The notes beneath the pieces were generated by a model, which searched no databases, was not told the DNA's origin, and saw only the letters and a list, made by a program, of their open reading frames with translations. DNA of 64,000 nt, from positions 1,630 to 65,629 of the forward strand of contig PKTF01000391.1 in assembly GCA_002869275.1 (NCBI GenBank). Direction: 5' to 3'. Origin of the DNA: Ignavibacteria bacterium. Its GTDB lineage: Bacteria; Bacteroidota; Ignavibacteria; SZUA-365. The translations under genes were made by a program, and so were the position numbers. The first letter of the stretch is position 1. Each line of letters opens with the position of its first letter. This document shows positions 10,272-61,431 of this stretch, one piece after another.

Positions 10272-10284
10272 TTATACCCTTTCG

Positions 10285-10403: not shown

Positions 10404-10406
10404 TAC

Positions 10407-10440
10407 AAAAAAACCCCCTCCCGGAAACCGGGAGGGGGTT
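10407..10440 (-). terminator. Intrinsic terminator (bidirectional shape) for the T9SS cargo gene
   Basis: AAAAAAA-CCCCCTCCCGG-AAA-CCGGGAGGGGG-TTTT. It sits about 25 nt past the stop at 10465. Confidence 0.85.
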
Positions 10441-10464
10441 TTGAAATGCGAACTCTGCAGCGTA

Positions 10465-13143: not shown

Positions 13144-13495
13144 TTAATCCTCCGATGGGGTTATGAATGATGAATAGGATTGAATAGCATACCATTTAAA
13201 GTCAACGATAGTGTTCAAACTACCATTTACCGCCTGTAAAGTCAAGCAAATGGGGATCTGAAGAGGCTTCGGCCGAACAACAGCCTTGCTGCTCAGCCTG
13301 AGCGCTGGATACCAGGTTTTTCCCTGAAATCGCCACCTATCGATGATCTACAATTCGCTAAAAAGAATACCATTCAGCGCGTCCAATGTCAATAGAAAGG
13401 GAAAAAATGAATTTCTTCTCCGTGACCCTGTTTTCGAGGCTTCATGCACGGCGGGTACTTGCAATTCCTGACCTGTATCGGCATCTTTAAATGAT

Positions 13496-18273: not shown

Positions 18274-18279
18274 GAATAC

Positions 18280-19188: not shown

Positions 19189-19269
19189 GGTAGGATACTC
19201 TTCAAGCGTTATAGCATATCAAAGAAAATTAGCTCCGATACTCAGGAAAAACAAACCGGGCCGCACCAT

Positions 19270-20415: not shown

Positions 20416-20438
20416 GGATTTCGGGCGGGTGCTGGTGA

Positions 20439-21590: not shown

Positions 21591-21593
21591 GCG

Positions 21594-22625: not shown

Positions 22626-22626
22626 G

Positions 22627-25220: not shown

Positions 25221-25228
25221 GCTCGCTG

Positions 25229-27874: not shown

Positions 27875-27980
27875 GGCAACCGGCTGATATTGAATGACAG
27901 AGGGAGTATAAAGGAAAAAAATAGCCATCCCGTGATGAAGAAACAATGCGTTCCCCTGTCAGGGACAGCCAGGGACAGCA

Positions 27981-38764: not shown

Positions 38765-39766
38765 TCAGACTTGCAGCAGTTCCTCCGCAGCATCGACAAC
38801 CCGCTCGGCCCGCAGGTCTATCATGCAGACGAAGGTCGCGATCGGACATTCCTTTCCACCGTGGATCCCGCACGGCCGGCACTCCAGTTCGTTGTGCTCG
38901 ACGATGCGAAACGGAACGCCTACCGGGGTAAAGCCAAACGCAGGAACCGTTGCACCGAAGATTTCGACCACCGGCGTCCCCACCGCCGATGCAATATGAA
39001 CGGGCGCACTGTCGTTACTGATCAAGACCCCGGCACTCCGTATCATCGCGGCAGAACCCAGCAGAGAAAGCGCTCCGGCCGCGTTGACGGCGGCAGCACC
39101 CGAACTCGTGATGATTCGCTCGCACAGCGCGTGGTCTTCCTTCCCTCCGATCAGAACCACTGTGTACGCGACGGCGAAGTGCCGCACAATCGCGGCGAAA
39201 CCTTCCTCCGTCCACCTCTTTGTTGCCCAAACCGAACCGGGCGCCACGCAGACATGTGGCCTGCCTGTATCCGGCAGCAGCGCCGCCGCGCTCTGCGCGT
39301 CGTGCTCCGATGGATACAGCCTTGGTGATGTGTCCAACACCGGTGCGCACTCCGCCCTGCGAAGAAGCGACAGATTGCGAACTGCTTCGTGTTCGTTTTG
39401 CCGATAGGATGCTGTGGCCGTATACAGGAATGCGCCCGATGCGGTATCGAACGCTACACGAACCGGTGCGCCGGAAGCTCTGGCAAGGATTGCACTGCGA
39501 AACGACCTGTGTGGAGATAGGCAAAGTGTATACTTCTTTTTCCTGATCTGATTCATCAAAGGAAACAGGCCCGGCTTTCTGTTTCGCTTATCATACACGA
39601 TCAGGTCACGCACAGCGGGATTATTTGCCAGCAGATCTGCGGTAGAAGGGATACAAAGCACATCGATCCGTGAACCCTGGAAGCAGCGGGCCGTCTCCTC
39701 TATCAGCGGTGTCGTAAGGATCAGATCTCCTGCAAACGCCGTTTGAATGATGAGGATATCACTCAT
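38765..39766 (-). CDS. Glycosyltransferase family 9 (LPS heptosyltransferase-like)
   Basis: 333 aa. It starts ILIIQTAFAGDLILTTPLIEE and shows ...GSVWATKRW...VLIGGKED...NDSAPVHIASAVGTPVVEIFG, the typical GT9 pattern. Confidence 0.8.
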   Translation of the reverse strand: MSDILIIQTAFAGDLILTTPLIEETARCFQGSRIDVLCIPSTADLLANNPAVRDLIVYDKRNRKPGLFPLMNQIRKKKYTLCLSPHRSFRSAILARASGAPVRVAFDTASGAFLYTATASYRQNEHEAVRNLSLLRRAECAPVLDTSPRLYPSEHDAQSAAALLPDTGRPHVCVAPGSVWATKRWTEEGFAAIVRHFAVAYTVVLIGGKEDHALCERIITSSGAAAVNAAGALSLLGSAAMIRSAGVLISNDSAPVHIASAVGTPVVEIFGATVPAFGFTPVGVPFRIVEHNELECRPCGIHGGKECPIATFVCMIDLRAERVVDAAEELLQV

Positions 39767-40673
39767 GGTCCGGGTCCTCGATGAGAACGCTCTCTGCGTG
39801 AGGTGTATGTTTCCAGCGCTTGTGCTGCCACAGCCATTGCTCGGGATGCGCGGCGACCATGCGTTCGAGTGCGCGCACGTGCCTCCGTGTCAGTTCGTGC
39901 AGATGTTCCTCGTTCAGCCCCTGCAGGTCCCGTGTCGGAATTTCCTGCAGTATCACGTCGTAATTACCATCCGCAGCCCGTACCGCATAAGTCATGACGA
40001 TCGGGGCGCCAGTCCGGAGAGCGAACGTCGCAGGACCTTCGTACGTGGCCGCGTGCCGACCAAAGAAGCGGACGTACAGGGCGCCGCTCGGACCGCTCTG
40101 ATCCGCGATCAGCGCTACGATACCGCGTTCACGCAGCGTCTTGATGATTTCACGGATGGACAGTCCCAGGTCTACCACCCGGTTTCCGAGCTGTGTGCGC
40201 CACCCTTCCACCAGTGCGTTGACCGAAGGATTATGCAGGGGATGAACGATGACCGTGGCGGTGAAGCCCATGAGGCGCGAGGCGCCGATGGAAAGCCATT
40301 CCCAGTTACCGAAATGCCCGGACATCATGATGAGCCCGTTTCCCCGCCTGCGCGCACGTTCCACAACCTCAGGATTCCTGATACGGAGGACCTCCGGCAG
40401 CCGCTCAAATGTCAGCCGCGGAGTCCACATCAGTTCGAAAATGGTCGTGACCAGGCTCACGTAGCTGCCATAGGCGATGCGTCTGATTTCAGCGTCCTCC
40501 TTTTCAGGGAACGCGCGTCTCAGCTGCTGCAGGGTGAGTTTCTTTCTTATGGAAAGTACGTAGTACACGAATGCCGCCAGTGCCGCCGCGAGCCTTCGGA
40601 CCAGTCCGAGAGGCAGCTGCTGCAGGATGCGCGCGATCGTGAGAAAGAGCAGGTATTCGAGCGTCGATTTCAC
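39759..40673 (-). CDS. Lysophospholipid/lipid A late acyltransferase family (LpxL/HtrB-like)
   Basis: 304 aa with an N-terminal TM helix. The catalytic HFGNWE motif is present, and the C-terminus reads HPEQWLWQHKRWK. The start is GTG. The gene overlaps the GT9 gene by 8 nt. Confidence 0.8.
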   Translation of the reverse strand: MKSTLEYLLFLTIARILQQLPLGLVRRLAAALAAFVYYVLSIRKKLTLQQLRRAFPEKEDAEIRRIAYGSYVSLVTTIFELMWTPRLTFERLPEVLRIRNPEVVERARRRGNGLIMMSGHFGNWEWLSIGASRLMGFTATVIVHPLHNPSVNALVEGWRTQLGNRVVDLGLSIREIIKTLRERGIVALIADQSGPSGALYVRFFGRHAATYEGPATFALRTGAPIVMTYAVRAADGNYDVILQEIPTRDLQGLNEEHLHELTRRHVRALERMVAAHPEQWLWQHKRWKHTPHAESVLIEDPDHE

Positions 40674-40694: not shown

Positions 40695-42065
40695 TTAGTA
40701 CGTCCCGGCGGTGCGCTCCCAATCCGGATTGTAGATTTCGTTTCGTTTCGTGGAATGCACGAGTTCATAGCTGCTGAATCCGCCACGATCGACGAAGATG
40801 AAATCCACACCGCCCTCGATGGCGTCGTACCTCCAGATCTCATGAGGCTTCATGTCGCTCTCGCTGGAGAGACGCTCGACGTAATCCGGTGGGCCGTACA
40901 GCATATACACCCGGCCGCGATCTGAGCGCCAGCCGCTGCGATAGGCCGTCCGGAACTGTTCGCTGCAGATTGCGATGCGCTGGCGGTACTCCTGATAAAA
41001 CTCGTTGATCGGAGTTGCGGGGTCCGGGTCTCGGTCACGCCAGAATTTTGTGAGAAATTTCTTTTTTGCCTCGGAGCCTGTCAGCGCTTCGTAGATATTG
41101 CTTTCTTCCGAGGTCGCGATATAGTTGGCCATGGCATACTGTTCGTCCAGTTCGTCCTCTGCCATGGCACTGAATTCCGCTGCGATGAGATCGGCGATCG
41201 CCGACGCTTCCAGCGTGTCGAGAGGAATATCCGGATTGAAGACGTAGAAGGCCTTGCTCTGCGAATGGAGGTAGTCCCCCGCCGTATCGCCGTAGGAGAG
41301 GATGAGGGTATAGACACCTGTCGGCAGCGGACTCACATTCATCGATCCCACTTCCACGCGAGAGTCGTGCTTGCCCTTTCGCGCACGCACCTTGCTCGAC
41401 ATGGTCTTCCCATAAGACGACACAATCTCGCTCTTGACAAGAAACTGCTCACGGTCCGCTTTGTACAGCTCGATGTAGTACAGGACATTGGGCAGCTGTT
41501 TTCCATAAAGCAGCGTGGGGTTGGGAATGACCTCCAGAGTGTTCTTGTAAAAAATATTTCCGTCGTCCATTTCCTTGCGCTCGATAGACGATGCCAGCTC
41601 CAGGTCACTGTACTTGACTGCGCGCGTGGAGAAGTCACGAACTTCAAAGGGGATCGACACACTGTCGCTGATCAGCGGACGCTTTTCATCGCGGGTCACC
41701 ACGGTGAAGCTGTAGCGTCCGGGTTCGAGAAGGAAATTCACCTTTCCTATCAGCGTTTTCTCGAGCATTCCCGTCGTATCCTCGACACTGATGGGAACGC
41801 GCCAGGATTTGAGAATGGGGTCCTGCTCCGCTTCCTCATCGAGATTGCGAATGATGGAGTGCAGTACCGCTGCGCCGTCGTACCTCCCGTTCACCAGTGA
41901 ATACTCAAGGACACTGCGAGGAAAGGAATAATACATTTCGACGTAACTCGTCTCCTTGTCGTACTGAAACGCAGCCATGTCGATACTGACCTGTATTTGT
42001 GATGGCTGTGCAGCCGCGAGCATGGGAAAACAGAGAGCACAGATAAGTAACAGACGCTTCGTCAT
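40695..42065 (-). CDS. GWxTD domain-containing protein
   Basis: 456 aa with a signal peptide. The C-terminus FWRDRDPDPATPINEF...YRSGWRSDRGRVYMLYGPPDYVE...EIWRY is the GWxTD signature. Confidence 0.8.
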   Translation of the reverse strand: MTKRLLLICALCFPMLAAAQPSQIQVSIDMAAFQYDKETSYVEMYYSFPRSVLEYSLVNGRYDGAAVLHSIIRNLDEEAEQDPILKSWRVPISVEDTTGMLEKTLIGKVNFLLEPGRYSFTVVTRDEKRPLISDSVSIPFEVRDFSTRAVKYSDLELASSIERKEMDDGNIFYKNTLEVIPNPTLLYGKQLPNVLYYIELYKADREQFLVKSEIVSSYGKTMSSKVRARKGKHDSRVEVGSMNVSPLPTGVYTLILSYGDTAGDYLHSQSKAFYVFNPDIPLDTLEASAIADLIAAEFSAMAEDELDEQYAMANYIATSEESNIYEALTGSEAKKKFLTKFWRDRDPDPATPINEFYQEYRQRIAICSEQFRTAYRSGWRSDRGRVYMLYGPPDYVERLSSESDMKPHEIWRYDAIEGGVDFIFVDRGGFSSYELVHSTKRNEIYNPDWERTAGTY

Positions 42066-42168: not shown

Positions 42169-42193
42169 GAAGGGCCCCGAAACGGGGCCCTTC
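42169..42193 (-). terminator. Candidate terminator/processing hairpin between the PorV-like and GWxTD genes
   Basis: GAAGGGCCCCG-AAA-CGGGGCCCTTC is a perfect 11-bp stem. The U-tract on the minus strand is weak (GCCGTTTTCC). Confidence 0.5.
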
Positions 42194-42214: not shown

Positions 42215-43264
42215 TTAGAAACCGAGGTTAACGGTAATCACGTGGTTACCGTCAAAAGTTTTCATGTGGCGATAGGCATAGTCGACACCGATCTGCAGAT
42301 CGCCGGCATCGAGATTCACGCCTGCACCGAATGCGGCATCGTATTCGTAGGCACCCTCATCGAAGGCATTGTCAGGCTCATCGCCGGCCATGTTGTACGA
42401 GCCCCGGAGGAAGAAGAAGTTCCGGAATGAATACTCGACACCGACGCGATACTGATCCGTGATGAAGTTGTTGTTCTCGAAGGATCCCGCGAAGGTGAAA
42501 TTGTGCAGCTCCGCCAGAGTGCGCGTGTAAGCAACACCGAGTTCGAGAGATGTCGGGAGGCTGAAACCTGCCGCTTCGATGCGCAGGAGCTGCGGGTCGC
42601 GCTTGCTGTCGAGCTCATCCACACGGCGGGTCAGACCTGCACCCTCGTACTGCACATTGCCACCGAGGTGACGGAGGGTCACGCCGATACCAAGACCGCG
42701 AACACCTGCGAGTCCCTGATACTGCACACCGATGTCGAAGGACGCGGTGGCAGCCGAAACACGATACATGTCTTCGCTGACGAGGTATGCCGAGACACCG
42801 GCACGAATGCGATCGGTAAGCGCGCGCGCATATGTTACACCCAGAGCGACGAACGTCGGCGACCAGGTCGCGCCCGTGCCGTCGGGGCTGGTTTCATCCG
42901 TCAGATCGATGTCGCCGAAAGAGAGCGATTTTACGGAGAAGGCCAGATGGCCGAAGCCTCCGAACTCCGCTCCGACTGCGGCATAATCCACGCCGATGTC
43001 ACCGAAGGATGAGGTGTGTGAGAACAGGGCTTCGGCAGAATTCTTCGTTGCCGCGAGGCCTGCAGGATTGAAATAGATGGCATTGAGGCCAGAGATGCCC
43101 GCACTGTAGGAACTTCCGAGCGCGATACCCCGCGCACCGACGGGAACCAACAACTGGTCCGCTCCCGCAGTACCTGAGCGGTCACCACCTCCGGCGGTCG
43201 CGGTGGCGCTGATCAGAACGAGCGCCATCAACACAGCCAGGAAAGATGAAAGCGTAGTACGCAT
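42215..43264 (-). CDS. PorV/PorQ-family outer-membrane beta-barrel (T9SS-associated)
   Basis: I chose the start at MRTTLSSFLAVL, which is preceded by GGAG. GTAGADQLLVPVGARGIALGSSYSAGISGLNAIYFNPAGLA matches the PorV/PorQ N-terminal signature. The C-terminal ...NLGF has an aromatic end. Confidence 0.7.
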   Translation of the reverse strand: MRTTLSSFLAVLMALVLISATATAGGGDRSGTAGADQLLVPVGARGIALGSSYSAGISGLNAIYFNPAGLAATKNSAEALFSHTSSFGDIGVDYAAVGAEFGGFGHLAFSVKSLSFGDIDLTDETSPDGTGATWSPTFVALGVTYARALTDRIRAGVSAYLVSEDMYRVSAATASFDIGVQYQGLAGVRGLGIGVTLRHLGGNVQYEGAGLTRRVDELDSKRDPQLLRIEAAGFSLPTSLELGVAYTRTLAELHNFTFAGSFENNNFITDQYRVGVEYSFRNFFFLRGSYNMAGDEPDNAFDEGAYEYDAAFGAGVNLDAGDLQIGVDYAYRHMKTFDGNHVITVNLGF

Positions 43265-43334
43265 GATTAATCTCCTATATGATGTATCTGATTCACAACG
43301 ATTGTTCATATGCATGTGTTGCTGCCCGCCGGGC

Positions 43335-46300
43335 TTAGATGCGGTCGAGGTACTGGGCCTCGCTCACGACACCAAGCTTCAGCACCTTTTCAGTGCCGAG
43401 ATCGGGCATCTCGATATGAATAATGTAGACACCGCTCGCAACGGGGAGGCCGTTGTCGTTTTGGAGATCCCATGTGGCAAGCTGTGAACCGTCATCAACC
43501 TTTCTGAAGCTGGCGACCAGTGCTCCCGACACCGTGTAGATGCGGAAGTTGGCACGCGCTGGAAGGTGGTTGAAGGTCACAAAACGCTGATACTTGTTCA
43601 GCTCTTGCTCGTTGGATCCCAGGTATGGATTCGGGAAGACCTGGATTTCCTCCACGTCCTCCATGGCATTCTCCATGCTGAACGAGGGTTTCGGGGTTGT
43701 GAATGTAAATACATCGTCGCTGCTGAATGCGACATTGGGCACCCAAACCAGTTTGTCTCCATCCTGGAACGGGTACAGAGTTCCATCTGCATCTGCGGTC
43801 TGCTCAGGCCACCAGGCATAGAGAATTGGCATGTTGCCTGCGTTGGCGGTAAGAGTAAACTCGGGATCCACCCATTCAGCATTGGGCGTCTCACTGTACG
43901 GAACATCGAGAATGAATAGATACTCGCGATCACTCCATGCGATAGGATTCCAAATGTTATCCTGGGTTGGTCCGTCCTGCGCCTCGACAAAGGCGTAACT
44001 GAGCTGCACAGGATTGTCTTCGTCGGTCACATCCCAGATGGTCATGGGTGAAGGATGGTATCCGACACAGCCGTAGCTGGGGGTACCACCACGAACGAAA
44101 ACGTATCCGTTGGACGTTACATTTCGGTCCCAGCGGATTTCCACAATCTTCTTGATATCGTATCCTGGGATCGAACTTCCGAAGAAGTCATATCCCGGCA
44201 GGAAGTAATGCTGGAAATCGTAATAGACCTGCGGACCACCTTCCCAGTACACGTCGAGGATCTCATTTCCGGTCTGGTAAACACCTGAGCCTAAAAGGCC
44301 GATCTGGAAGCCATCGAGCGTATAATAGCTCGTCGACAGTCCGCCGTATCCGGTCGCGTTGGCAATCAGGTCTATGCTTTGCGTCGTGTTGGCGAGATTC
44401 CATCCATAGGAGTCGAACTCCAGCATTTCGCCGCCGTAATCGACTTCGACCTTGCCCTGCGAAGTGAAGGTCACGGCATAGGAATCGCCGGTCAGAGCGG
44501 ACGGATCGACGACTTTAACAAGGACCGAACCGGTGGAGAGTCCTTCAGTGTGCATCACCTGCAGGTTCTCACCCAACTCGGCACCTGCACGGTAGCCGGG
44601 ATCCATGATCTGTGGACGTACCTCGAAGATACTCGGCGTCGACTCGAGCTGACGTGGCGTCGCCTCGTCGTCGGTATTATACGAGTACGCGGTCACGGCA
44701 AAGTAATACGGCTGGTTGTTGACCAGCGGACGGTCCGTGATAGCATCGCTCGTGATTTCAAGCAAACGCTCGATGCCGGAATCCGTACCGAACTGCACGG
44801 GCAGGACGACGACGGCGCCGGTCTTGTTGTCGATGACTTCGTCAAAAATGGTCGCGATGTTATCGATGACATCGAACGTTGCGATGCGCTTTGCATCATC
44901 GATGGTTGAACTCGACGAAGGGAACTGGTACACGTTGTATCCCTGGAACCCGTAGCCACGATCAATGTAGCTTTCCGTTGCTTTGACGCCGTTGGGATCA
45001 CCCCACATGAGAATGATCTTGTTGTTCTGCAACGACGATGTCACGCGCGGCGCGGGCGGCGCCTTCGGCAGGTCGAAGTTGTTGTCGAACGCCAGCTGTG
45101 CGAAACGATCATAATACTTCAGGACCTGGAGGCTGGAGATACGGTCGGAACCGCGTCCCACGATGCGGGAAACGACAACTTCCTGCTTGTTGATCTTTCC
45201 ATTGGCCAGATCAGTGTCCTTGTTCAGGGTGAACGGACCGGTCGTCATCAACATGCGGCGATCATCCGGTGCATTGACGATTCCGTCAATCCACCCGGTC
45301 TTGGTAATCGGATCACCGGCGAGGGTGACTTTGACCTCTTCATTCGTGGTCGGATCGATGAAGGGCTGTCCGTCGTACAACTTCGACTGCAGATAATTGT
45401 ACATCTGGATGGCGCCTTCAGGAATACCGAGATCCGGATCCTGGTACACGGGGTCAGAATTGATATAGAACGCGAAGGACGACACCTGCAGATTCTTCCA
45501 CCCGGCAAGTTTGCCAAAGTTGTAGATCGCCTCGTCGCCGGGCTCACCCGGCACGACCGGACCCTGGAAAAAGTCATAGCCCGCTGCGGGCGGCACACCG
45601 TAGACATCGTCCTTGGCGAGACCGTTGTAGCAGAAGCCCAGAGAAAGCGTGGTGTCGATACCGACAAGGTCATCAGCGGCGTCACCGAGATCGGGATCCG
45701 ACCACAGTGCGAAGTAAGCGTCTTCGAGATCGGAAATACCGCGGTTGATCACGGTATACTTCGCGAACACCATGTTGCCGAGAGGACCGGTCTGATTGTA
45801 CCCCCACACGAGAGTCTGCACTTCGACTCCGATCGGTGCCGTGCCGTACAGGTCGGTAGTGCGGGAGGGATCGAGGTCGTTCGAAACAAACCACAGGACC
45901 TCGTCGCCGATGAACCACGGGGAGTCTGCGTTTTCGTCGCCGCTCAACCAGGCGTCGAAATCGGGATTATAGCTGCCGTTGTTATCCCCATCGGTATAGG
46001 GGGCACCAATCGCGGCCGGCCATTCGAGAAAGTCCTTCTCGAGACGCGCCCGCTCTTCAGCCGTCATCTGACCATATGCGTCACGATCAACGAGACGTAC
46101 TTTATAGATGCGGTGTGTCGGATCGTTCGCATCTGCCGGGGTACCATCACCTTTGATGTTACCCGCCTGCAGGCCCTGAACATAGGTTGATCCGCCGATG
46201 CGAATCTCACCCTCGACCTTGCCGCCCCAGATGAGTCCGTCCTGGAAGATGGCATACTTTGCACTTCCGGCCGGCCATTCCAGGCCCGAGCCGTCTGTGA

Positions 46301-46496
46301 GGGGATTATGTGATGTGGCTCCGTTATTCGAAATCCACATCAGAATGTTATTGATGGAAATGAAGTCATAAACGTCGTTAGATGCAGATTTCTGCAGTTT
46401 ACCGCGGTCCTTGCCGCCCTCATGCTCCCCGGCCTGAATATCGGCCGCGAAACAGAGCAACATGAGCAGCAGGAACAACCTTCCAAACATTTTCAT
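43335..46496 (-). CDS. Large secreted protein of unknown function with a T9SS C-terminal sorting domain
   Basis: About 1053 aa. The start MKMFGRLFLLLMLLCF lies 7 nt after AAGGAG. An FN3-like module is LPKAPPAPRVTSSLQNNKIILMWGDP...GYNVYQF...YYFAVTAYS. The CTD is VFPNPY...FRIYTVSGALV...SGVYIIHIE. I recognise no catalytic motif. Confidence 0.8.
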   Translation of the reverse strand: MKMFGRLFLLLMLLCFAADIQAGEHEGGKDRGKLQKSASNDVYDFISINNILMWISNNGATSHNPLTDGSGLEWPAGSAKYAIFQDGLIWGGKVEGEIRIGGSTYVQGLQAGNIKGDGTPADANDPTHRIYKVRLVDRDAYGQMTAEERARLEKDFLEWPAAIGAPYTDGDNNGSYNPDFDAWLSGDENADSPWFIGDEVLWFVSNDLDPSRTTDLYGTAPIGVEVQTLVWGYNQTGPLGNMVFAKYTVINRGISDLEDAYFALWSDPDLGDAADDLVGIDTTLSLGFCYNGLAKDDVYGVPPAAGYDFFQGPVVPGEPGDEAIYNFGKLAGWKNLQVSSFAFYINSDPVYQDPDLGIPEGAIQMYNYLQSKLYDGQPFIDPTTNEEVKVTLAGDPITKTGWIDGIVNAPDDRRMLMTTGPFTLNKDTDLANGKINKQEVVVSRIVGRGSDRISSLQVLKYYDRFAQLAFDNNFDLPKAPPAPRVTSSLQNNKIILMWGDPNGVKATESYIDRGYGFQGYNVYQFPSSSSTIDDAKRIATFDVIDNIATIFDEVIDNKTGAVVVLPVQFGTDSGIERLLEITSDAITDRPLVNNQPYYFAVTAYSYNTDDEATPRQLESTPSIFEVRPQIMDPGYRAGAELGENLQVMHTEGLSTGSVLVKVVDPSALTGDSYAVTFTSQGKVEVDYGGEMLEFDSYGWNLANTTQSIDLIANATGYGGLSTSYYTLDGFQIGLLGSGVYQTGNEILDVYWEGGPQVYYDFQHYFLPGYDFFGSSIPGYDIKKIVEIRWDRNVTSNGYVFVRGGTPSYGCVGYHPSPMTIWDVTDEDNPVQLSYAFVEAQDGPTQDNIWNPIAWSDREYLFILDVPYSETPNAEWVDPEFTLTANAGNMPILYAWWPEQTADADGTLYPFQDGDKLVWVPNVAFSSDDVFTFTTPKPSFSMENAMEDVEEIQVFPNPYLGSNEQELNKYQRFVTFNHLPARANFRIYTVSGALVASFRKVDDGSQLATWDLQNDNGLPVASGVYIIHIEMPDLGTEKVLKLGVVSEAQYLDRI

Positions 46497-46556
46497 GCCC
46501 ATTCTCCTTGTATTACTTCTACGATAATTCATCTGTTGACCAACGTCCGATGGTGA

Positions 46557-49500
46557 TTAAAAATCGATTCTCAGACCGAGGCGCACCTGCCGCGGCGGGC
46601 CGTAGAGAGGTGCATTCATGACGTTCGTCTGATAGTAGTATTCACGATAGAGATCGGAATACACACTGCCATAGGCCTCATACGCCTGTACGAGCTGGTT
46701 ACCTGTCGTCGTGCTCAGGTAGCCATCATCACTGGCGCTGCCGGACTGAATAAAGACATCGGTCACGTTCCTGGTGTCAAGCAGGTTGACCACCCAGACG
46801 TAGAAGTTGAAATCGAGAGAGGCGATAGTCACTGTTTTGTCAAGACGGGCATCGAGCTGGAAGTTCCACGGGGTGCGGGACTCGTTCAGCACTTCGACGG
46901 GCTGACGGCGGTTGTCATAACTGTTCTCATCAACGAGGGTGTAAGGATGACCACTGTTGAATGTGAACAGCATGTTGAGTCCGAGATTCTCGAATGGATG
47001 CATTCCGCCGATCTCAGGACCGTCATTGTTCGAGAATCGATAGTCGATGTTCAGCGCACCGCGATGCGTCTGGTCGAAATCGAGTGACGTCGTGTATTTC
47101 GGGAGATACGGGGTTTCCGTCGGGGAGAGCCAGAGCGCGCGGAAAGCGCTCGACGGGGCAGAGCCGGTTCCGCGGGCGTCGGCATACGTATAGTCGATCG
47201 AAGCCTGTATGCGCTCGGTGCGGCGCAGATCGATCTTCAGAGAGAGACCCGAGGTCGTGGCGAAGTCGCCGTTAATCCATGCAAAATATGCACGGTGCTG
47301 CGCACCTGAGGCGGCAGGGATCTGCTGCTGCTGAATCTGGTCGCGGATATCCTTGTAGAACGCTCCGATATCAAACGCGAGATTTTCGCCGATCTGCTGG
47401 CGGAAACCGAAGTCATACTGAATTGTGGTTTCCGGACGAAGGCCGTAACCCACCGGATTCTGAATCGCGTAGCCGCCACGAATATTGTTGGCGGAAATCG
47501 CGCTTCCCAGGTAGACATCGCGCAAACGAGACTGCTGCACGAACTTACCGTACTGTGCGTAGAACACCGTCTGGTCAGTCACAGGGAAGGAGAAACCGAG
47601 ACGCGGACTGAACGTTGACGAAGCCTCGACATCCTTGAGGTTGTCGTCCTTCTGGCTGATGAGTCCTTCCTCATCAAACTTGATCTTATTCGGATCCACG
47701 AACTCCTTCGTGTCGGTATCGATGAAATCCCAGCGAAGACCGACATTGATGATCAGATCCTCCAGCTCAATTTTGTCAAGAGCGTAAACAGAAGCGAACA
47801 CCGGTTTCTTCGGTCCGTTCGCACCGTCATCAACCGGGATACCCCACTCATTGTATCCGTAGTTGTTCGTACGAGAACTGACGGCGATCTGTCCATCCGT
47901 CGCGTCGGGATTGTTACGAACAAAGCTTCGAAGAGTAAATGGGGTGATATCAAACTGGCGTACGTCGTACTGCGACGCTTCACCACCGAGCTTGATTTCA
48001 TGCGTGCGTCCGATCTGATGCACGAAGTTCAGCTTTGCGCTGATCGACGAGTAGCGATCCTTCTGATAGGCATACCCACGCGCTGGCGAACCATACACTT
48101 CGTACTGGTCGCCGAAGAGCTCGATGGGCAGGGGGCCGATGCCGTCGCCACGGAACTCATAGCCGAGCGGGGAGTTGGCGGCAGAGTCACCGTACGCGAA
48201 GAGATCATGCTGGTGATACGGATCCATCGCCAGGTTGAAGTTGCCGAAATAGTTCACGAAGATTTCGTAGAACGTGTTCTGGCTCAGAAGATGTGTCATC
48301 TTCAGGTTGGCGCTGTAATTTTCAGACTCCGTCTGCAGCGCGCGATGCTGATTGCCGTACGAAATGTTCTCGCCGGTGTTGTAGAACCACTGCTGTGCAG
48401 TCTGGTCGAAATAGGCCGTGCGACCGACCTGATATCCGCGCTGCACCGGACCGTCCACCGGTACCGGATTCGTTGTACCGACCGTGTAATCTCCGTCGCG
48501 AACCGTTGAGTACCCGTAGGTACCGCCGACCCGAATGTTGATCGGGTTGAGATCGATGGTCAGGTTACCGTTGAGAGCGTAGGCTTCCTGGGCATTATTA
48601 TAGATCAGGCCGCCGGGGTAGGTGAAGTCCACCTTCTTCGCCGCCGATCCCAGTCGGGGATCGAAGATGCCGACCTTGGCTTGCTCCTCTGGAGCGAGCA
48701 CGGCATGCGCAGCGGTGGACCGCAGAGCCATGTCGTACTTGTTTGCCAGGTCCATCGGATCACGGTACTGCGCCGGTGTGCGCTGGAAGGTGTTCTGTCC
48801 CGCAACGAAGAAACGGACAGGACCGACGAGCGGACCAGCGGCAGTCATGACGTACTGGCTCAGGCCGTAGTTATACGATCCGAGGAAATTCTCCTCACCC
48901 GGAGTCCCCCAGCTGTCGGTGTAGGCTTCAAGTCCGAACTGGTATTTACGGGATCCGGTGCGTGTGGTCGTGCTGATCAGACCACCGTTTGCTCCGCCGA
49001 ATTCCGCGGAATAGCCACCCGCCTGGAAGTTCACCTCTGCGATGGCATTGTTGATGACGGTGAGGGAACGTCCGCCATACACAGGGTCGTTGACATTCAC
49101 ACCGTCAACGATGTACCCGGTCATGTCACCACGGCTTCCGCGCACGTGCAGATCGCCGTCCTGGCTGACGGTTCCCGCCTGGAGGGCCGCAATATTCTCG
49201 ACACCGCGCACGGGAAGATTTTCAATCTCCTCCTGGGTAACGGTGCTCTTGCTGTTCGTCACGTTCTTGTCGACGAGCGGCTTTTCTGCGATGATCTCGA
49301 CTTCTCCGACTTTGAAAGCCTCGCTGGGAAGCCGGAAATCTGTCGATGTTGTCTCGTTCGACTTGATCAGAATGTCACGGATGGTGATCTGCTGATATCC
49401 GATGTAGCTGCTGACGAGGGTGACCTTGCCAATGGGGACGTTCAAAATGACGTACTCACCATTGATGTTGGTGGCAGCACCGCGATCCGTGCCTTCAATC

Positions 49501-49631
49501 ACGACGTTCGCACCAATAAGAGGCTCTCCTGTCTCGCGATCTGTAACTTTTCCGGCAATCTTGCCTGTTTGTGCCATTGCGGCTACCGGGAAAAGAATAC
49601 AGAGGATAGCAATCAGGATCCATTTATGCAT
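46557..49631 (-). CDS. TonB-dependent receptor (CarboxypepD_reg + plug + large barrel)
   Basis: 1024 aa. AQTGKIAGKVTDRETGEPLIGANVVIEGT marks the CarboxypepD_reg domain. The plug reads NLPVRGVENIAALQAGTV...VRGSRGDMTGYIVDGVNVND. The C-terminus is ...VRLGLRIDF. Confidence 0.92.
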   Translation of the reverse strand: MHKWILIAILCILFPVAAMAQTGKIAGKVTDRETGEPLIGANVVIEGTDRGAATNINGEYVILNVPIGKVTLVSSYIGYQQITIRDILIKSNETTSTDFRLPSEAFKVGEVEIIAEKPLVDKNVTNSKSTVTQEEIENLPVRGVENIAALQAGTVSQDGDLHVRGSRGDMTGYIVDGVNVNDPVYGGRSLTVINNAIAEVNFQAGGYSAEFGGANGGLISTTTRTGSRKYQFGLEAYTDSWGTPGEENFLGSYNYGLSQYVMTAAGPLVGPVRFFVAGQNTFQRTPAQYRDPMDLANKYDMALRSTAAHAVLAPEEQAKVGIFDPRLGSAAKKVDFTYPGGLIYNNAQEAYALNGNLTIDLNPINIRVGGTYGYSTVRDGDYTVGTTNPVPVDGPVQRGYQVGRTAYFDQTAQQWFYNTGENISYGNQHRALQTESENYSANLKMTHLLSQNTFYEIFVNYFGNFNLAMDPYHQHDLFAYGDSAANSPLGYEFRGDGIGPLPIELFGDQYEVYGSPARGYAYQKDRYSSISAKLNFVHQIGRTHEIKLGGEASQYDVRQFDITPFTLRSFVRNNPDATDGQIAVSSRTNNYGYNEWGIPVDDGANGPKKPVFASVYALDKIELEDLIINVGLRWDFIDTDTKEFVDPNKIKFDEEGLISQKDDNLKDVEASSTFSPRLGFSFPVTDQTVFYAQYGKFVQQSRLRDVYLGSAISANNIRGGYAIQNPVGYGLRPETTIQYDFGFRQQIGENLAFDIGAFYKDIRDQIQQQQIPAASGAQHRAYFAWINGDFATTSGLSLKIDLRRTERIQASIDYTYADARGTGSAPSSAFRALWLSPTETPYLPKYTTSLDFDQTHRGALNIDYRFSNNDGPEIGGMHPFENLGLNMLFTFNSGHPYTLVDENSYDNRRQPVEVLNESRTPWNFQLDARLDKTVTIASLDFNFYVWVVNLLDTRNVTDVFIQSGSASDDGYLSTTTGNQLVQAYEAYGSVYSDLYREYYYQTNVMNAPLYGPPRQVRLGLRIDF

Positions 49632-49755
49632 AATATCCTCCTTCAGAACTTGAGAAAACGTTATCTGTTCGTCATACCTCCAGGATTCGGATTCGCATCA
49701 GGACCGGTCCTTCCATTGTTCCACCAATCCTGCCCTGATGCATGATGCATAATCC

Positions 49756-50487
49756 TTATTTTGGTTCGTCCTGGAGTTTCACAACCTCAAGCGATCCGGA
49801 ATCACCAAAGATGACAAAGGTGTAGCGGTAGCCTGGTGTCTCGAGTGCACTGCTGAACTTGGAATCGAGAAGCACGACCCCACCCGTGCGGGCAGCGTAG
49901 TAATTCTGGCTCTGAGGCATGGCGAGAACGCGATTGTACGCGGAAAGCGAACCTGCGTCAACCGGATTGAGCAGGACTTCGTAGTTCCCCTCGGATACTT
50001 CGTAGGAAATACCAAAGGCTTCGCCGCGACTGTTCAGGTTGAGCACCTTCACGTCACAGCTGTCCTGCAACATGCTGGTTTCGTCTGCATAAGTGAACCG
50101 TTCCTGCGTGCTCATCAGCTGGACATCCTCGGCGGCATTGTAAAACGCCATCGTGATCTGCGTAAGCGAACGCACGCTCACGAGCTGACGAAATACCGCG
50201 TTCGAAGTATCCTGGCCGGCGGGAACGAGGCGCAGGAACCTGTTTCCGGAGTTGACCGAAAGGTACTGGCTGTAGCCCTTGTACCCCACGTTGCTGGCAA
50301 TCTTGTCTGCATCAGCGTAGATGTCCATGGCGCCCGCATTCGGGACGGCATGCACAAAGCGTACGTCCGACGTGATCTGGCCAAGCACAGGCGGGTTCGG
50401 TTCATCAATGCAGCCGGTCAGCGCGACACCGGCCGTAAGAAGCACGATGCCCAGCAACCCGGCTTTCCGTAGCAGCTTTTGTTGCAT
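49756..50487 (-). CDS. DUF4397-domain lipoprotein
   Basis: 243 aa with AGGAGG upstream and lipobox ALTGC. VRFVHAVPNAGAMDIYADADKIASNVGYKGYSQYLSV is the DUF4397 pattern. Confidence 0.75.
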   Translation of the reverse strand: MQQKLLRKAGLLGIVLLTAGVALTGCIDEPNPPVLGQITSDVRFVHAVPNAGAMDIYADADKIASNVGYKGYSQYLSVNSGNRFLRLVPAGQDTSNAVFRQLVSVRSLTQITMAFYNAAEDVQLMSTQERFTYADETSMLQDSCDVKVLNLNSRGEAFGISYEVSEGNYEVLLNPVDAGSLSAYNRVLAMPQSQNYYAARTGGVVLLDSKFSSALETPGYRYTFVIFGDSGSLEVVKLQDEPK

Positions 50488-50518: not shown

Positions 50519-50547
50519 AGAATAGATGCACGAACTGTCTATGTCAA
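50519..50547 (-). promoter_or_regulatory. Putative sigma70-type promoter of the DUF4397-TonB receptor operon
   Basis: The minus strand reads TTGACA-17 nt-TATTCT, about 30 nt upstream of the ATG. The near-palindrome ATCATTGC-AGAA-GCGATGAT abuts the -35 element. Confidence 0.5.
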
Positions 50548-50939: not shown

Positions 50940-51011
50940 TCCTCGGTAGCTCAATGGTAGAGCATGCGGCTGTTAACCGCAGGGTTGTAAGTTCGAGTCT
51001 TACCCGGGGAG
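50940..51011 (+). tRNA. tRNA-Asn (GTT)
   Basis: Manual cloverleaf. The acceptor is TCCTCGG/CCGGGGA and the D arm is GCTC..GAGC. The anticodon arm TGCGG-CTGTTAA-CCGCA carries GTT. The T arm is GTAAG-TTCGAGT-CTTAC. No CCA is encoded. Confidence 0.9.
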
Positions 51012-51072
51012 CAAAAGCGCGGGTTGCACCCGCGTTTTTCATTTCCTCTCATATCGAAACGGTGCTCGTCAC

Positions 51073-51835: not shown

Positions 51836-51909
<74 letters not shown>

Positions 51910-51950
51910 CAATGAAATAACGAAGCTGTTGAGTAATCCGGAGAAAATCT

Positions 51951-55862: not shown

Positions 55863-58800
55863 ATGGATGAGCGCTTCACATGGATCAGGCGCGAGCAGCG
55901 GTGGATCTACGCCACCGGGATCCTCCTCATCATGCTTTCGCTCGTTTTCGCCGCACGCGCGTATTTCCTCGATCATGTCTCGGGGAACTGGGATACGCTG
56001 CGATCCGAGGTGAATCGGGGGCAATCCGACATCATTGAACTCCGGCTGAACAGTATCCGGACGGACTTGAACAGCCGGTTGGAGGACCTCCTCGCGCGAG
56101 AACCCGAGCGACTGTTTGCTTCGGAAGACCGTTCCCCGGAGCGAGCCCAGGCAGCACGCCGGCTGATCGAACATTTCCCCGCCGACGCTTATTCTTTCGA
56201 ATTCCGTTCCACCGCCGGGCGGCTCGCCGCGTTTTGCGGTGAACCGATGACGGAAGCTGCACACGCTCTGGAACCGGAGGCGGGTCTGGCCATCATCGAG
56301 CGCACTCCGTACGTCTTCCTGACGCATACTGCCATTCTGCGGGACAGTTCCGGAGTCCTGGGTTCGCTCCGTGTCGGGACGCCCCTGACAACGACGGTCC
56401 CGATCAACCGGCGCTATCTCAATTCGGAAGGCTACCTGCATACGCTCGGGCAGAACCTGGATCTTGAACTGGAATTCTCCAGAGAACTCCCGCCCCCAGA
56501 CGCCGAACAGGTCGTGCTTCCCGTTCTTTCACGAGAACACCCGCTCGGTTATGTCTCCTATCATGGAGCAGACCGCGAGAGTTATCTCGACCATATCGCC
56601 CGGCAGTTCAACCGTGTCGCGGTATTTCTTCTCTTCTGCACGTTTATCGTCATCTCTATCCCCCTGCTGCGGATCTATCTCCGCTTCAGGTCCGCCCTGC
56701 CGGCCTTCGTTGTCATCGTCCTGCACGTATGGGCCATACGATATATCCTGTACTTCAGTGGATTCGCGGAACTGATCTTCCCTGCAGCCATGATGGATCC
56801 TGCCTACTTCGCCTCGCCGTTCGGCTGGGGCATCACCAGTTCCACCGGCGAGTTGCTGCTGTCCGTCTGCGCTTTGCTCCTCTCCGCGGTGCTGCTCTAC
56901 CGTCTCACCCTCGATCGTCGGGAGACGTTGCTCAAGGCTGCGTTCGCAGTTGCGGTGGCCGCCATCCTGTGCATACTGCTTCCCTTCATCCTGCGCGGCT
57001 ACGCCGCCTCACTGAAAAGCTTTGTCTCGGACTCGACCTTCAACTTCGATGATGTCACCGGTCTGCTCGATCAACCGATGTATCTGGTCATGCTCATCGC
57101 GACCTACCTTTTTTCCCTGGCGCTCGGCTTTGGACTTCTCAGCTGCTACCTGATGGTGAAGTCCGCGTTGCGTTCGGTGTCGACCCCGGGCGGAAAAACC
57201 GGCATCCTGGCGGGCGGAACAGCAGCTGGTTTCCTGATCTTCGTCGCCACGACCTCCGACTACCTCCTGCCCTGGTGGGTGTACCTCGGTTTCGGCATAG
57301 TCTTCATCATCCCGCTGATCGTGCGCGTCCCGCCGATCCGTGGCAGGTCTGACTCCCTCATCGCCCCGTTCGCCGTGACGGTCGTCATTGGAGCGCTGCT
57401 GACCATTACCCTGTTCAGCCATTTTATGAATGGAAAACGCGCGAGCGAAATCCAGGCCATCGCGATCGACCTGTCACGACCGGTTGACGGGTGGTCTCAG
57501 GTGCTGATGGAGCAGACCCTGCAGTATATTTCGCGCGAGCGTGTCGGACGCATTCCGCCCCCGGCTGCTGCGGGCGCACCGGATTACGAGGCCGCATTCC
57601 GGATCTGGTCGGGTTCGCCCCTGAGCCGACTGCAAAACAATTCCGCCATTCTGCTTCTGGATTCGACGCATGCTCCCGTGTCTCGTTTCGCTGTAGGAAA
57701 CAACCCCTTTCTTCTCTCGATGCATGCCCTGGCATCCACGATGGAGAGTACCGAGGGACTGGTGCAGAGCACGTACCGCTGGCAGGAGACCCGTGGCAGA
57801 CGATACTACCGCGCATACACCGATATCTCAACGAGCGGCGTGGGCGCCACACTGGCTGTCGTCATCCTCGAGGCTCTCGATCCGATGCACATGACACGGC
57901 AGTCGGTGGATCTGCTGCGAAACATCCCTGCCAGCATCAGTCTCGTTCCGGAAGACAACTACATCATCAGCCGCTTCAGTGATGGGGTGATGCGGCAGAC
58001 GACGGACCGGCGCCTCGAAAGGAGCCTGGAACTGCCCGAAGAAGTCCTTGAAACGGTCCAGCAGAAAAAACAGCCTCGTTGGAGCTCGATCAATGTCGAT
58101 GGTGAAGCTCTGGACAGCTACTTCATCGCCGTGCCGGATACGGAGGACGAAATTCTCGCGATCACGCGCGGGCAATCGGTTCCTATTCTTTCCATCTACC
58201 GGGGATTACGTATCGCGCTGCTCTATGCCGCGTTGAGTCTGCTCCTGCTCGCACTGATCGCTCTCGTCACCAGGCGGTATCTGCTCATCTCCCGAATGAC
58301 GTTCGCGCGCAAGCTGCAGCTTGCACTGCTGGGGGTCGCGGCCATTCCGCTGCTACTCGTCTGGATCACCGGCAGGGACTTCGTGGAGGAAAATGCACGG
58401 CGTGAAACCGAATCCCAGGTCGTCGAGGACCTCGACATTCTGCGTACCAATATTCTCGAGCGACTCCCGGACGACAGCGACGTGGCGAACATCCCGGAGA
58501 TCATCACCGATCAGACCTGTCAGGAAATCCAGCTCCGCTCCGGAAAAGACCTCAATATCTACCACGGTCCAGAGCTGCGTGCGACGAGCAAGCCCGAACT
58601 GTATCATGTGGGGCTGCTCAACAACCGTCTCAACCCTCTCGCCCATATCAATATCGTGCAGCGTGGAAGAGATGTGTATTTCGCCTCCGAGCAGATCGGC
58701 GATTTCTCGTACTACGTAGGATACCTTGCCATCCGTGGTGAAAACGGGCAGCTGGCGGCCGTGATTTCCACACCCACACTCTTCCAGCGCGCGCAGGCGG

Positions 58801-59744
58801 AGGAAGGCTATCTCCGGGCTTCGGCAACGATATTTTTCTGGATCACGATCATCGGCATCCTTGTCATTCTTGCGAGCATCGCGCTTGCCAGGCAAATTTC
58901 ACGACCGCTGAACGAACTGCTCCGCGCTACCGGCGATATCGCGGAAGGAAACCTGAACAGGAAGCTCGATGTGCGGGGATCGGCAGAAATCGTGGACCTG
59001 ATGAATTCCTTCAACACGATGACAAGCCGGCTGCGTCAGAGTCAGGAAGAGCTTGCGGCTGCCGAGCGCGAGCTCGCGTGGAAGGAAATGGCGAAGCAGG
59101 TCGCACATGAGATCCGGAATCCCCTCACTCCGATGAAGCTCGCCGTGCAGCACCTGCAGCGCGCCTGGCGTGACGGCGCCGCTCAGCTCGGTGATATCAT
59201 CGAGAAGGTCACGCGGACGCTGGCTGATCAGATCGAGAGCCTCTCACGGATCAGCGATGAGTTTTCGCGCTTTGGTCGCATGCCCCGGCGGACGATGAGC
59301 GAAGTGGATATCGCGGATACCCTCACGGAGACCGCCGCCCTGTTTCGCGGCCACGAGCATGTCTCGATTGCTCTGCAGATCGACTCTCAGCTCCCGCCCG
59401 TACAGGCCGATCGTGAAGAACTCGCCCGCGCATTTACCAACCTCCTGCGCAACGCGGTTCAGGCAATCCACGACGAAGGGGAAATCCGGCTCACCGCCGC
59501 TGAGATGGATGGCTGGATAGAGGTTCGGATCGCTGACAGCGGGACGGGAATCGCACCTGAGCTTCTCGACAGGATTTTCGAACCGAACTTTTCGACGAAA
59601 ACCGAGGGCATGGGACTGGGACTCCCGATCGTAAAAAAAATCATCGACGATGCCGGCGGCGAAATCACGATAGACAGCACTCCTGGAGCGGGTACGACCG
59701 TCCGAATTTCCCTTCCGATCGCCTCAAGTGAATCCCTGAGCTAG
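55863..59744 (+). CDS. Very large polytopic sensor histidine kinase (HAMP-HisKA-HATPase_c)
   Basis: 1293 aa with about 12 predicted TM helices and three extracytoplasmic segments in the first roughly 1000 aa. The HAMP domain is RPLNELLRATGDIAEGNL. The H-box is AHEIRNPLTPM, the N-box is NLLRNAVQA, and the G-boxes are DSGTGI and GMGLGLPIV. No response regulator is adjacent. Confidence 0.9.
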   Translation: MDERFTWIRREQRWIYATGILLIMLSLVFAARAYFLDHVSGNWDTLRSEVNRGQSDIIELRLNSIRTDLNSRLEDLLAREPERLFASEDRSPERAQAARRLIEHFPADAYSFEFRSTAGRLAAFCGEPMTEAAHALEPEAGLAIIERTPYVFLTHTAILRDSSGVLGSLRVGTPLTTTVPINRRYLNSEGYLHTLGQNLDLELEFSRELPPPDAEQVVLPVLSREHPLGYVSYHGADRESYLDHIARQFNRVAVFLLFCTFIVISIPLLRIYLRFRSALPAFVVIVLHVWAIRYILYFSGFAELIFPAAMMDPAYFASPFGWGITSSTGELLLSVCALLLSAVLLYRLTLDRRETLLKAAFAVAVAAILCILLPFILRGYAASLKSFVSDSTFNFDDVTGLLDQPMYLVMLIATYLFSLALGFGLLSCYLMVKSALRSVSTPGGKTGILAGGTAAGFLIFVATTSDYLLPWWVYLGFGIVFIIPLIVRVPPIRGRSDSLIAPFAVTVVIGALLTITLFSHFMNGKRASEIQAIAIDLSRPVDGWSQVLMEQTLQYISRERVGRIPPPAAAGAPDYEAAFRIWSGSPLSRLQNNSAILLLDSTHAPVSRFAVGNNPFLLSMHALASTMESTEGLVQSTYRWQETRGRRYYRAYTDISTSGVGATLAVVILEALDPMHMTRQSVDLLRNIPASISLVPEDNYIISRFSDGVMRQTTDRRLERSLELPEEVLETVQQKKQPRWSSINVDGEALDSYFIAVPDTEDEILAITRGQSVPILSIYRGLRIALLYAALSLLLLALIALVTRRYLLISRMTFARKLQLALLGVAAIPLLLVWITGRDFVEENARRETESQVVEDLDILRTNILERLPDDSDVANIPEIITDQTCQEIQLRSGKDLNIYHGPELRATSKPELYHVGLLNNRLNPLAHINIVQRGRDVYFASEQIGDFSYYVGYLAIRGENGQLAAVISTPTLFQRAQAEEGYLRASATIFFWITIIGILVILASIALARQISRPLNELLRATGDIAEGNLNRKLDVRGSAEIVDLMNSFNTMTSRLRQSQEELAAAERELAWKEMAKQVAHEIRNPLTPMKLAVQHLQRAWRDGAAQLGDIIEKVTRTLADQIESLSRISDEFSRFGRMPRRTMSEVDIADTLTETAALFRGHEHVSIALQIDSQLPPVQADREELARAFTNLLRNAVQAIHDEGEIRLTAAEMDGWIEVRIADSGTGIAPELLDRIFEPNFSTKTEGMGLGLPIVKKIIDDAGGEITIDSTPGAGTTVRISLPIASSESLS

Positions 59745-61353: not shown

Positions 61354-61431
61354 TGAACGGCACGCCGACACGCGAGACAATTCTCTCATCCCGAGGAATT
61401 GAAATCCATAATAACTCAAGAGATACCACGC

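Follow-up and report, generated by a model that had tools for sequence, protein, structure and literature searches.

We analysed a 64,000-nucleotide (nt) stretch of contig PKTF01000391.1 from an Ignavibacteria bacterium (assembly GCA_002869275.1), referred to below as the window, and found on its minus strand a unit of three genes that is conserved far outside this genome. The genes encode a TonB-dependent receptor, a 1053-amino-acid (aa) secreted protein with a type IX secretion system (T9SS)-type C-terminal domain (CTD), which we call BIG, and a barrel of the PorV/PorQ family. The receptor-BIG-barrel arrangement occurs far beyond chance, and the triad is an obligately co-inherited unit. We tentatively read it, at a little less than an even chance, as a nutrient-uptake complex with a T9SS-delivered surface lid anchored on a private barrel. 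A full-text search of the published literature found no description of this triad.

Conservation of the triad

The alignment of BIG was scanned against one genome per species (185,579 species). This gave at least 565 relatives, from which the 80 best loci were taken for analysis. The receptor, BIG and barrel genes were present in the same order and on the same strand in 74 of the 80 genome loci, at 33-80% identity by tblastn. Four of the six loci without the full triad are on truncated contigs and two are genuine exceptions: one (L068) has the BIG and barrel genes and no detectable receptor, and the other (L054) has BIG by itself. ORF (open reading frame) clustering of the 80 loci concurs with tblastn, and the seeming misses are artefacts of antisense ORFs or frameshifts. 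Metagenome contigs were scanned with a receptor profile, which reached 80 loci independently of BIG. From the receptor side, BIG is directly downstream in 68 of the 68 metagenome loci with room for it, and the barrel is next after BIG in 45 of 45. The triad was intact in nearly all of the approximately 130 complete related loci. The initial annotation of this DNA had named beforehand three outcomes that would speak against its proposal: a gene order not conserved outside the source genome, membership of BIG in a characterised enzyme family, and a barrel of another family. All three were checked and none was observed; the gene order in particular is kept outside the source genome.

The identities to the receptor, BIG and barrel of the window correlate with one another across loci, with r of 0.93-0.96. 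Several metagenome-assembled genomes (MAGs) carry two paralogous triads (L003/L011, L006/L013, L007/L015 and L005/L016). In a locus labelled Latescibacterota (L073, positions 1632-15928), the genes are in the tandem order receptor-BIG-receptor-BIG-barrel, giving two receptor/BIG pairs and one barrel gene, and another locus (L066, 12449-15556) has an additional receptor beyond the barrel. The MAGs with a triad are labelled Ignavibacteria, Melioribacteraceae, Kryptoniota, Caldithrix and Latescibacterota, and several of the bins are plainly mislabelled. The nearest relatives of BIG, at 76-82% identity, are in MAGs labelled Bacteroidetes or Bacteroidota. Judging from a Melioribacter isolate (L048) and a MAG labelled Ignavibacterium album (L041), the triad seems to be present in the cultured genera Melioribacter and Ignavibacterium, which would make biochemical tests feasible.

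The initial annotation had proposed a four-gene system that also included the gene for a DUF4397 lipoprotein upstream of the receptor. The receptor-BIG-barrel core of this system was upheld, whereas DUF4397 could not be retained as a core member because it was found upstream of the receptor in only 17 of the 80 genome loci. It is an accessory to the triad, limited to two sub-lineages. The protein in the window matches Pfam PF14344 (E 4.9e-18; 66.3 bits against a cutoff of 30.6) and has the lipobox LTGC with acidic residues past the Cys (CIDE); a sequence search of the PDB gave no relative. In seven loci of an Ignavibacteria sub-lineage (L038, L040, L041, L045, L052, L072 and L074), another T9SS-sorted protein is encoded upstream of DUF4397, either of about 600 aa with BNR-like SxDxGxTW repeats or of about 750 aa with a weak CBM56 match. 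These proteins hint at a glycan theme.

The receptor, BIG and the barrel

The receptor begins with a signal peptide, which is followed by a carboxypeptidase-regulatory-like extension at the N-terminus, then by a TonB-box-like segment (GEVEIIAEKPLVDK), a plug and a putative large barrel; its last residue is Phe. It matched the Pfam families CarbopepD_reg_2 (E 1.5e-20) and Plug (PF07715; E 1.3e-6, 29.3 bits against a cutoff of 23.9, residues 122-217). In an alignment of 11 orthologues with 35-76% identity (A4), the N-terminal extension, the TonB-box-like segment and the plug motifs are conserved, and the plug motifs are invariant. The TonB-box-like segment, V-x-EVEI-x-A-x-KPL, stands at the expected place before the plug, and its residues V111, A115 and P118 are invariant. 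The barrel part gave partial matches to siderophore-receptor models (residues 604-822) and none to a Pfam barrel model. Among solved barrels, PhuR is the closest in sequence (E 5.5e-11), with a match that spans only part of the barrel; PDB searches with the single sequence or a profile otherwise gave N-terminal-extension domains only. No Oar-type barrel family was matched in the Pfam scan at E<=0.01, which returned CarbopepD_reg and Plug only. Features expected of a TonB-dependent importer are present in its sequence.

The earlier description of the receptor as a CarboxypepD_reg-type TonB barrel is correct, whereas membership in the SusC/RagA family is excluded by a score of 84 bits on TIGR04056, for which the cutoff is 368.25. 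The receptor had also been called giant, which does not apply, as its 1024 aa are the size of SusC. The reported absence of SusD was borne out: in the window, as in all related loci that extend far enough, the receptor gene is followed by that of BIG, which has no SusD-family match in Pfam. In most loci the receptor has neither a SusD nor a lipoprotein partner, and housekeeping genes lie upstream.

BIG has more than 1000 homologues, all of which are named hypothetical or "T9SS type A sorting domain-containing". Apart from matches confined to the CTD, no Pfam or NCBIfam family was found for BIG, and a profile search gave 0 PDB matches; as anticipated, these searches place it in no characterised enzyme family. 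The AlphaFold2 (AF2) model of BIG, based on a 70-sequence alignment (pLDDT 89.3, pTM 0.75), consists, in order, of signal peptide, disordered linker, N-domain, FN3-like region, further beta-sandwich, CTD and short tail, and it contains no beta-propellers and no (alpha/alpha)6 or other catalytic domain. Foldseek searches with the whole chain gave local matches only (TM about 0.1), to the CTDs of PorZ and PorU, to FN3 arrays and to macroglobulin-like Ig stacks. The top match was PorZ (5m11), again local, and the PorZ and PorU matches arise from the C-terminal and Ig-like parts. The FN3-like module that had been noticed in the sequence was recovered in the model as strands at 498-638, with Foldseek matches to fibronectin and tenascin FN3 arrays. 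The frequency of the commonest residue is 0.44-0.45 in region 641-955, compared with 0.62 in the N-domain and 0.70 in the CTD, and region 641-955 is a candidate specificity region.

The N-domain modelled alone reached a pLDDT of 96 and a pTM of 0.94. The blocks NNILMWISNNGATSHNPL and APDDRRMLMTTGPFTL, pointed out earlier as conserved, are present in the BIG translation and lie inside this domain. In Foldseek it came nearest, at a TM of only 0.35-0.39, to N-domains that are non-catalytic beta-supersandwiches, namely those of dextran dextrinase and of GH94, GH116, GH63 and GH15 enzymes. The alignment has 35 invariant residues in the N-domain, and since His, Cys and Ser are absent among them, common protease mechanisms are disfavoured. 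The invariant residues would fit a binding role and leave open, as less likely, a carboxylate-based glycosidase. No recognisable catalytic domain of the known glycoside hydrolase, lyase or peptidase families was found in BIG, and the model suggests that it is probably a large all-beta, non-enzymatic surface protein.

Among 1.84 billion representative proteins, the N-domain family comprises 5692 clusters of 50% identity at E<=1e-3, a number that falls to 1569 at E<=1e-30. All of these are currently annotated as hypothetical and would gain a function if the role proposed below for BIG is right. The N-domain also occurs in a second architecture, in which it follows a beta-propeller-like region of about 400 aa and precedes a canonical Por_Secre_tail CTD. 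Two proteins with the N-domain and an ordinary Por_Secre_tail (P0144 and P0212) have no receptor or PorV-like neighbour in long contigs. The second architecture was seen in L081, L082 and L083, in the last of which it occurs as a run of three to four consecutive T9SS-cargo genes (L083:7001-16844); no TonB receptor or PorV-like gene is near the N-domain genes in these three loci.

The CTD is the most conserved part of BIG, as distant homologues are 55-59% identical there and 41-45% identical over the whole protein. Besides the type-A motifs VFPNPY, SGMYI.HI and KILKL, it has an insertion specific to this family, G.N..E.NKYQRFVTFNHLP, and a tail with the conserved pattern E.Q.LDR. The assignment to type A made in the initial annotation is supported by these motifs and not by the model score, which is 20.5 bits on TIGR04183 against a cutoff of 23, and PF18962 Por_Secre_tail gave no match. 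The best NCBIfam match of the CTD was the CTD part of PorZ (E 3.2e-11), and the CTD part of PorU was also matched (2.6e-3). The full models gave 42.4 bits against 260 for PorZ (NF052228; model positions 665-756, the CTD, only) and 15.4 bits against 420 for PorU (NF033707; CTD only), and outside the CTD neither Cys nor His is invariant. With scores so far under the cutoffs, no propellers, no Cys/His dyad and multiple copies, BIG is excluded as PorZ or PorU. Neither BIG nor the barrel matched the type B CTD model or the PorP/SprF model in Pfam and NCBIfam.

The barrel scored 143.4 bits on the PorV/PorQ family model NF033709 (cutoff 90, residues 50-364), and its sole PDB relative is PorV of F. 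johnsoniae (6h3i_F), which agrees with its earlier placement in this family and not in FadL or another family. The scores on the equivalog models of PorV (NF033710, 45.7 against 250), PorQ (NF033711, 55.8 against 220) and PorV2 (NF052325, 54.8 against 325) are all far below the cutoffs, with PorQ as the best match. By these scores the protein, which ends in Phe, is a distinct PorV/PorQ subfamily. A search with a fragment of this PorV, confined to the fetched loci, recovered exactly the triad barrels and no canonical PorV gene.

PorZ keeps its CTD, which binds PorQ, and a shielding of CTDs from cleavage by their cognate PorV-like barrels has been proposed (PMC10202324). Genes for type B cargo are genetically linked to dedicated PorP/SprF shuttle barrels, and type A CTDs are reported to use general PorV (PMC12618676). 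We infer from the sequences that the T9SS exports BIG, which then remains docked through its CTD on the adjacently encoded barrel, because the linkage of the two genes is 1:1 and the CTD is atypical and hyper-conserved, and also because N-domain proteins with ordinary CTDs adjoin no private barrel.

Proposed mechanism and alternatives

Bacteroidia TonB-dependent transporters pair with surface lipoproteins, and the route of lipoproteins to the surface is an open problem. In the mechanism that we propose for the triad, the receptor, BIG and barrel would cross the inner membrane via Sec, as read from their signal peptides, and the machinery of beta-barrel assembly (BAM) would insert both barrels, as suggested by their families and the terminal Phe of each. 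The cognate PorV-like barrel would accept the BIG CTD and leave it uncleaved, so that BIG would stay non-covalently and permanently at the cell surface, like PorZ on PorQ. Anchored beside or over the transporter, BIG would act as a substrate-capturing lid or platform, in the role of SusD or BtuG, and TonB energy would drive the substrate through the receptor barrel. In some lineages, DUF4397 would be present as an additional, optional surface lipoprotein. Strict gene linkage, together with analogy to these systems, suggests that surface-held BIG may capture or process a substrate for the receptor, as the initial annotation had proposed. A glycan or other polymer is plausible as the substrate in view of the supersandwich modelled for the N-domain and of the low conservation of region 641-955; this region and the paralogous copies may reflect differing specificities.

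If this is true, sister lineages have an alternative to lipoproteins, in which the partner is exported by the T9SS and parked on a PorV-like barrel of its own. The T9SS and TonB transport, both hallmarks of the outer membrane in the Fibrobacteres-Chlorobi-Bacteroidetes (FCB) group, would be linked, with the T9SS assembling a permanent three-part transporter of TonB barrel, tethered lid and anchor barrel. The principle of a retained CTD on a cognate barrel would also widen from the T9SS machinery (PorZ-PorQ) to nutrient uptake. We regard the broader claim, that the triad represents a new and widespread kind of TonB-dependent uptake machine among Ignavibacteria-like lineages and their FCB neighbours, with the lid held by an uncleaved CTD on a private PorV-like barrel, as more doubtful and estimate its chance at about one in three. 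The novelty is the combination of two known kinds of pair, a transporter with a surface partner and a cargo with a cognate barrel.

The nearest systems of the first kind are SusC/SusD (RagA/RagB) and BtuB/BtuG. They resemble the triad in having a TonB barrel of about 1000 aa with a carboxypeptidase-regulatory-like extension, encoded directly before a presumed extracellular partner, and in being present in multiple paralogous copies per genome. The triad differs in that a PorV-like barrel gene is always third and the locus contains no enzymes or regulators. Compared with SusC/SusD, its receptor also fails the SusC/RagA model (84 vs 368 bits), and BIG is neither a lipoprotein nor helical like SusD; it is an all-beta protein of 1053 aa with a T9SS sorting domain.

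Of the second kind are PorZ-PorQ and PorU-PorV of Porphyromonas gingivalis, in which the uncleaved CTD of a T9SS-exported protein docks on a PorV-family barrel (PMC10202324). The CTD of BIG is nearest to that of PorZ, and among the equivalogs the triad barrel is nearest to PorQ. However, BIG lacks the beta-propellers of PorZ and the C25-type Cys/His peptidase domain of PorU, the triad proteins miss every equivalog cutoff widely, and the triad genes are adjacent, multi-copy and always coupled to a TonB-dependent receptor. Type B cargo with PorP/SprF barrels, such as SprB-SprF (PMC9143113, PMC12618676), is alike in that the cargo gene is linked to a private barrel that sets secretion and anchorage, whereas the CTD of BIG is type-A-like (VFPNPY, G.Y, KILKL) and its barrel is of the PorV/PorQ and not the PorP/SprF family. 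BamG-BamH of the Bacteroidota BAM (PMC12578637) resembles the triad, by description and not by sequence, in that the loops of a 14-stranded FadL/PorV-like barrel hold a large surface protein beside another barrel; BamH is a lipoprotein, however, and the partner barrel is BamA rather than a TonB-dependent transporter. The PorV-like complex of the Bacteroidota BAM described in the 2025 papers is a different complex from the triad. Oar of Myxococcus xanthus, which PopC requires for its secretion (PMC6434023), is another large TonB barrel whose N-terminus is carboxypeptidase-regulatory-like and which is functionally coupled to a secreted protein. It differs in lacking a family-level match and a PorV-like partner, and BIG has its own T9SS signal.

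Several observations weigh against an uptake function. Unlike typical uptake loci, the locus has no regulator, degradative enzyme or inner-membrane transporter. The likeness of the N-domain to domains of carbohydrate enzymes is weak (TM <0.4), and the CTD in the window is slightly under the type A cutoff. The main copy of the triad is in a conserved setting of housekeeping and lipopolysaccharide (LPS) genes, namely those for a GWxTD-domain protein, an LpxL-like acyltransferase and a GT9 heptosyltransferase, and a paralogous copy adjoins a SurA-like chaperone; these surroundings would suit an envelope role no less than a nutritional role. Because the GWxTD and LPS genes follow the main copy, an envelope-related role has to be weighed.

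In such a role, the triad would be an envelope-biogenesis or T9SS-accessory module, in which BIG and the barrel are a lineage counterpart of PorZ-PorQ or PorU-PorV, or a factor of LPS or glycan surface assembly, and the TonB-type barrel is a structural or energising partner and not a nutrient importer. The closeness of the CTD to that of PorZ and the top whole-chain Foldseek matches to PorZ and PorU would agree with this, as would the synteny of the main copy with the GWxTD, lipid A acyltransferase and heptosyltransferase genes from 76% to about 35% identity, the SurA-like chaperone beside paralogous copies, and the presence of the triad in nearly all sampled Ignavibacteria-like genomes with no adjacent catabolic genes. 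However, the PorZ and PorU scores (42 vs 260 and 15 vs 420) are confined to the CTD, the model has no beta-propellers and the alignment has no conserved Cys/His dyad. Two or more paralogous triads per genome and the tandem receptor-BIG duplication in L073 look like diversifying uptake systems, a TonB-box-like segment and the plug are kept in the receptor as in importers, and between the triad and the GWxTD gene lies a terminator-like hairpin. We consider the envelope module unlikely.

The invariant residues of the N-domain bear on another explanation, in which BIG is a novel glycoside hydrolase or lyase displayed by the T9SS that cuts up a polymer for the receptor, and the barrel merely anchors it, following the ordinary logic of polysaccharide utilisation. 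Asp, Glu, Asn, Gln, Trp and Tyr are represented among these residues, which include D167, D203, D219, E237, D293, D308, D424, E451, W171 and W414; the nearest folds are all from carbohydrate-active enzymes, and T9SS proteins with BNR-like repeats or CBM56 are encoded upstream in some related loci. The matched domains, however, are non-catalytic beta-sandwich parts, BIG lacks an (alpha/alpha)6 domain or any other catalytic domain as well as an enzyme family match in Pfam or NCBIfam, and the acidic cluster WSDPDLGDAADD appears to resemble a metal-binding loop rather than an active site. An enzymatic BIG is therefore rather improbable in our view.

We give still less credence to the explanation that there is no joint machine, and that BIG and the barrel are an adhesin or surface-coat pair co-transcribed with an unrelated importer or an Oar-like exporter: type B cargo and barrel pairs do work alone (PMC12618676), a TonB-dependent transporter can be required for protein export, as Oar is for that of PopC (PMC6434023), and L068 has BIG and the barrel without a detectable receptor while L054 has BIG alone, but such a reading hardly accounts for genes that stay adjacent in 68/68 loci reached from the receptor and 74/80 reached from BIG, and whose sequences diverge by more than 60% at correlated rates, the Pfam scan gave no Oar-type barrel family, and BIG with its own T9SS signal needs no other exporter.

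Locus layout, flanking genes and other features of the window

The four co-directional minus-strand genes that had been described were confirmed by ORF calls (Table 1). The true start of BIG is most likely M13, because AGGAGA lies 6 nt upstream of it and M13 is near-invariant across homologues (alignment A2). The barrel most likely starts at M18 of its ORF, which has AGGAGA 7 nt upstream. With these starts adopted, the intergenic gaps are 124, 60 and 70 nt, in agreement with the earlier values. Shine-Dalgarno sites of the AGGAG type precede all four genes.

The sigma-70-like sequence TTGACA-17-TATTCT upstream of the DUF4397 gene is present where it had been reported, with 10/12 matches. It is plausible but unproven as a working promoter and stays a candidate, because the region has 11 such matches against 6.8 +/- 2.6 in shuffled sequences, which is no enrichment. 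The hairpin 3' of the barrel gene was likewise confirmed by direct reading, with a G+C-rich 11-bp stem and a 3-nt loop; the terminator pattern scan had missed it because its T run begins 4 nt past the stem. A scan of the window found no riboswitch close to the locus. There is no second triad within the 64 kb, and an 863-aa ORF at 61399-63990 (+), which has no Pfam or NCBIfam match, is unrelated.

Table 1. Features of the triad locus in the window.
Feature	Position	Strand	Remarks
GT9 heptosyltransferase gene	38765-39766	-	downstream of triad
LpxL-like lipid A acyltransferase gene	39759-40673	-	downstream of triad
GWxTD-domain protein gene	40695-42065	-	downstream of triad
Intrinsic-terminator-like hairpin	42169-42193	-	3' of barrel gene; GAAGGGCCCCG-TTT-CGGGGCCCTTC, then GCCGTTTT
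PorV/PorQ-family barrel gene	42215-43264	-	349 aa from M18 (most likely start); open ORF reaches 43315
BIG gene	43335-46496	-	1053 aa from M13 (most likely start); open ORF 43335-46532, 1065 aa
BIG T9SS-type CTD	43338-43655	-	residues 960-1065 (domain 960-1057 and short tail)
BIG variable beta-rich region	43668-44612	-	residues 641-955; least conserved part
BIG FN3-like beta-sandwich	44613-45050	-	residues 495-640; conserved at 0.60
BIG N-domain	45063-46382	-	ORF residues 51-490; beta-supersandwich with helical inserts
TonB-dependent receptor gene	46557-49631	-	1024 aa
DUF4397 lipoprotein gene	49756-50487	-	243 aa
Candidate promoter TTGACA-17-TATTCT	50519-50547	-	sigma-70-like; upstream of DUF4397 gene; 10/12 matches

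The GWxTD gene follows the barrel in 33 of the 80 genome loci and in 11 of 45 metagenome loci, and the LpxL-like and GT9 genes are next in line in 24 of the 80 genome loci. This block keeps its synteny with the triad from 76% to about 35% identity. It goes with the main copy, and paralogous second copies are without it. For the GWxTD protein, a sequence search gave no PDB relative and no literature was found. In the second triads of the window's own clade (L011-L013), a gene for a SurA-like peptidyl-prolyl isomerase (Rotamase_2, SurA_N) takes the place of the GWxTD and LPS genes, about 100-200 nt past the barrel (for example, L012:12344-14293). The remaining flanking genes over the 80 loci are housekeeping genes (SerA, SerC-like, thioredoxin, DnaE, acyl-CoA dehydrogenase, M23 peptidase, bactofilin and AtpB), and clustering of these genes gave no clue to the substrate.

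Elsewhere in the window, a thiamine pyrophosphate (TPP) riboswitch at 7958-8061 (-), with 65 bits against a gathering score of 54, is directly upstream of an 813-aa TonB receptor gene at 5421-7862, which presumably encodes a thiamine-regulated outer-membrane importer. Just upstream of the triad locus, on the opposite strand, are tRNA-Asn(GTT) at 50940-51012 (+), followed immediately by a strong bidirectional hairpin at 51013-51039, and tRNA-Arg(CCG) at 51836-51910 (+). The gene at 55863-59744 (+) encodes a HAMP/HisKA/HATPase sensor kinase of 1293 aa, whose very long N-terminal region matches no family. The 892-aa protein at 10465-13143 (-) has a proprotein-convertase P-domain, FlgD_ig and a borderline Por_Secre_tail, by which it is likely to be a further T9SS cargo of the same genome. 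A polysaccharide-biosynthesis run at 17359-27946 (-) contains GT1/GT4 glycosyltransferases, a Polysacc_synt flippase and a 905-aa YfhO-like membrane protein.

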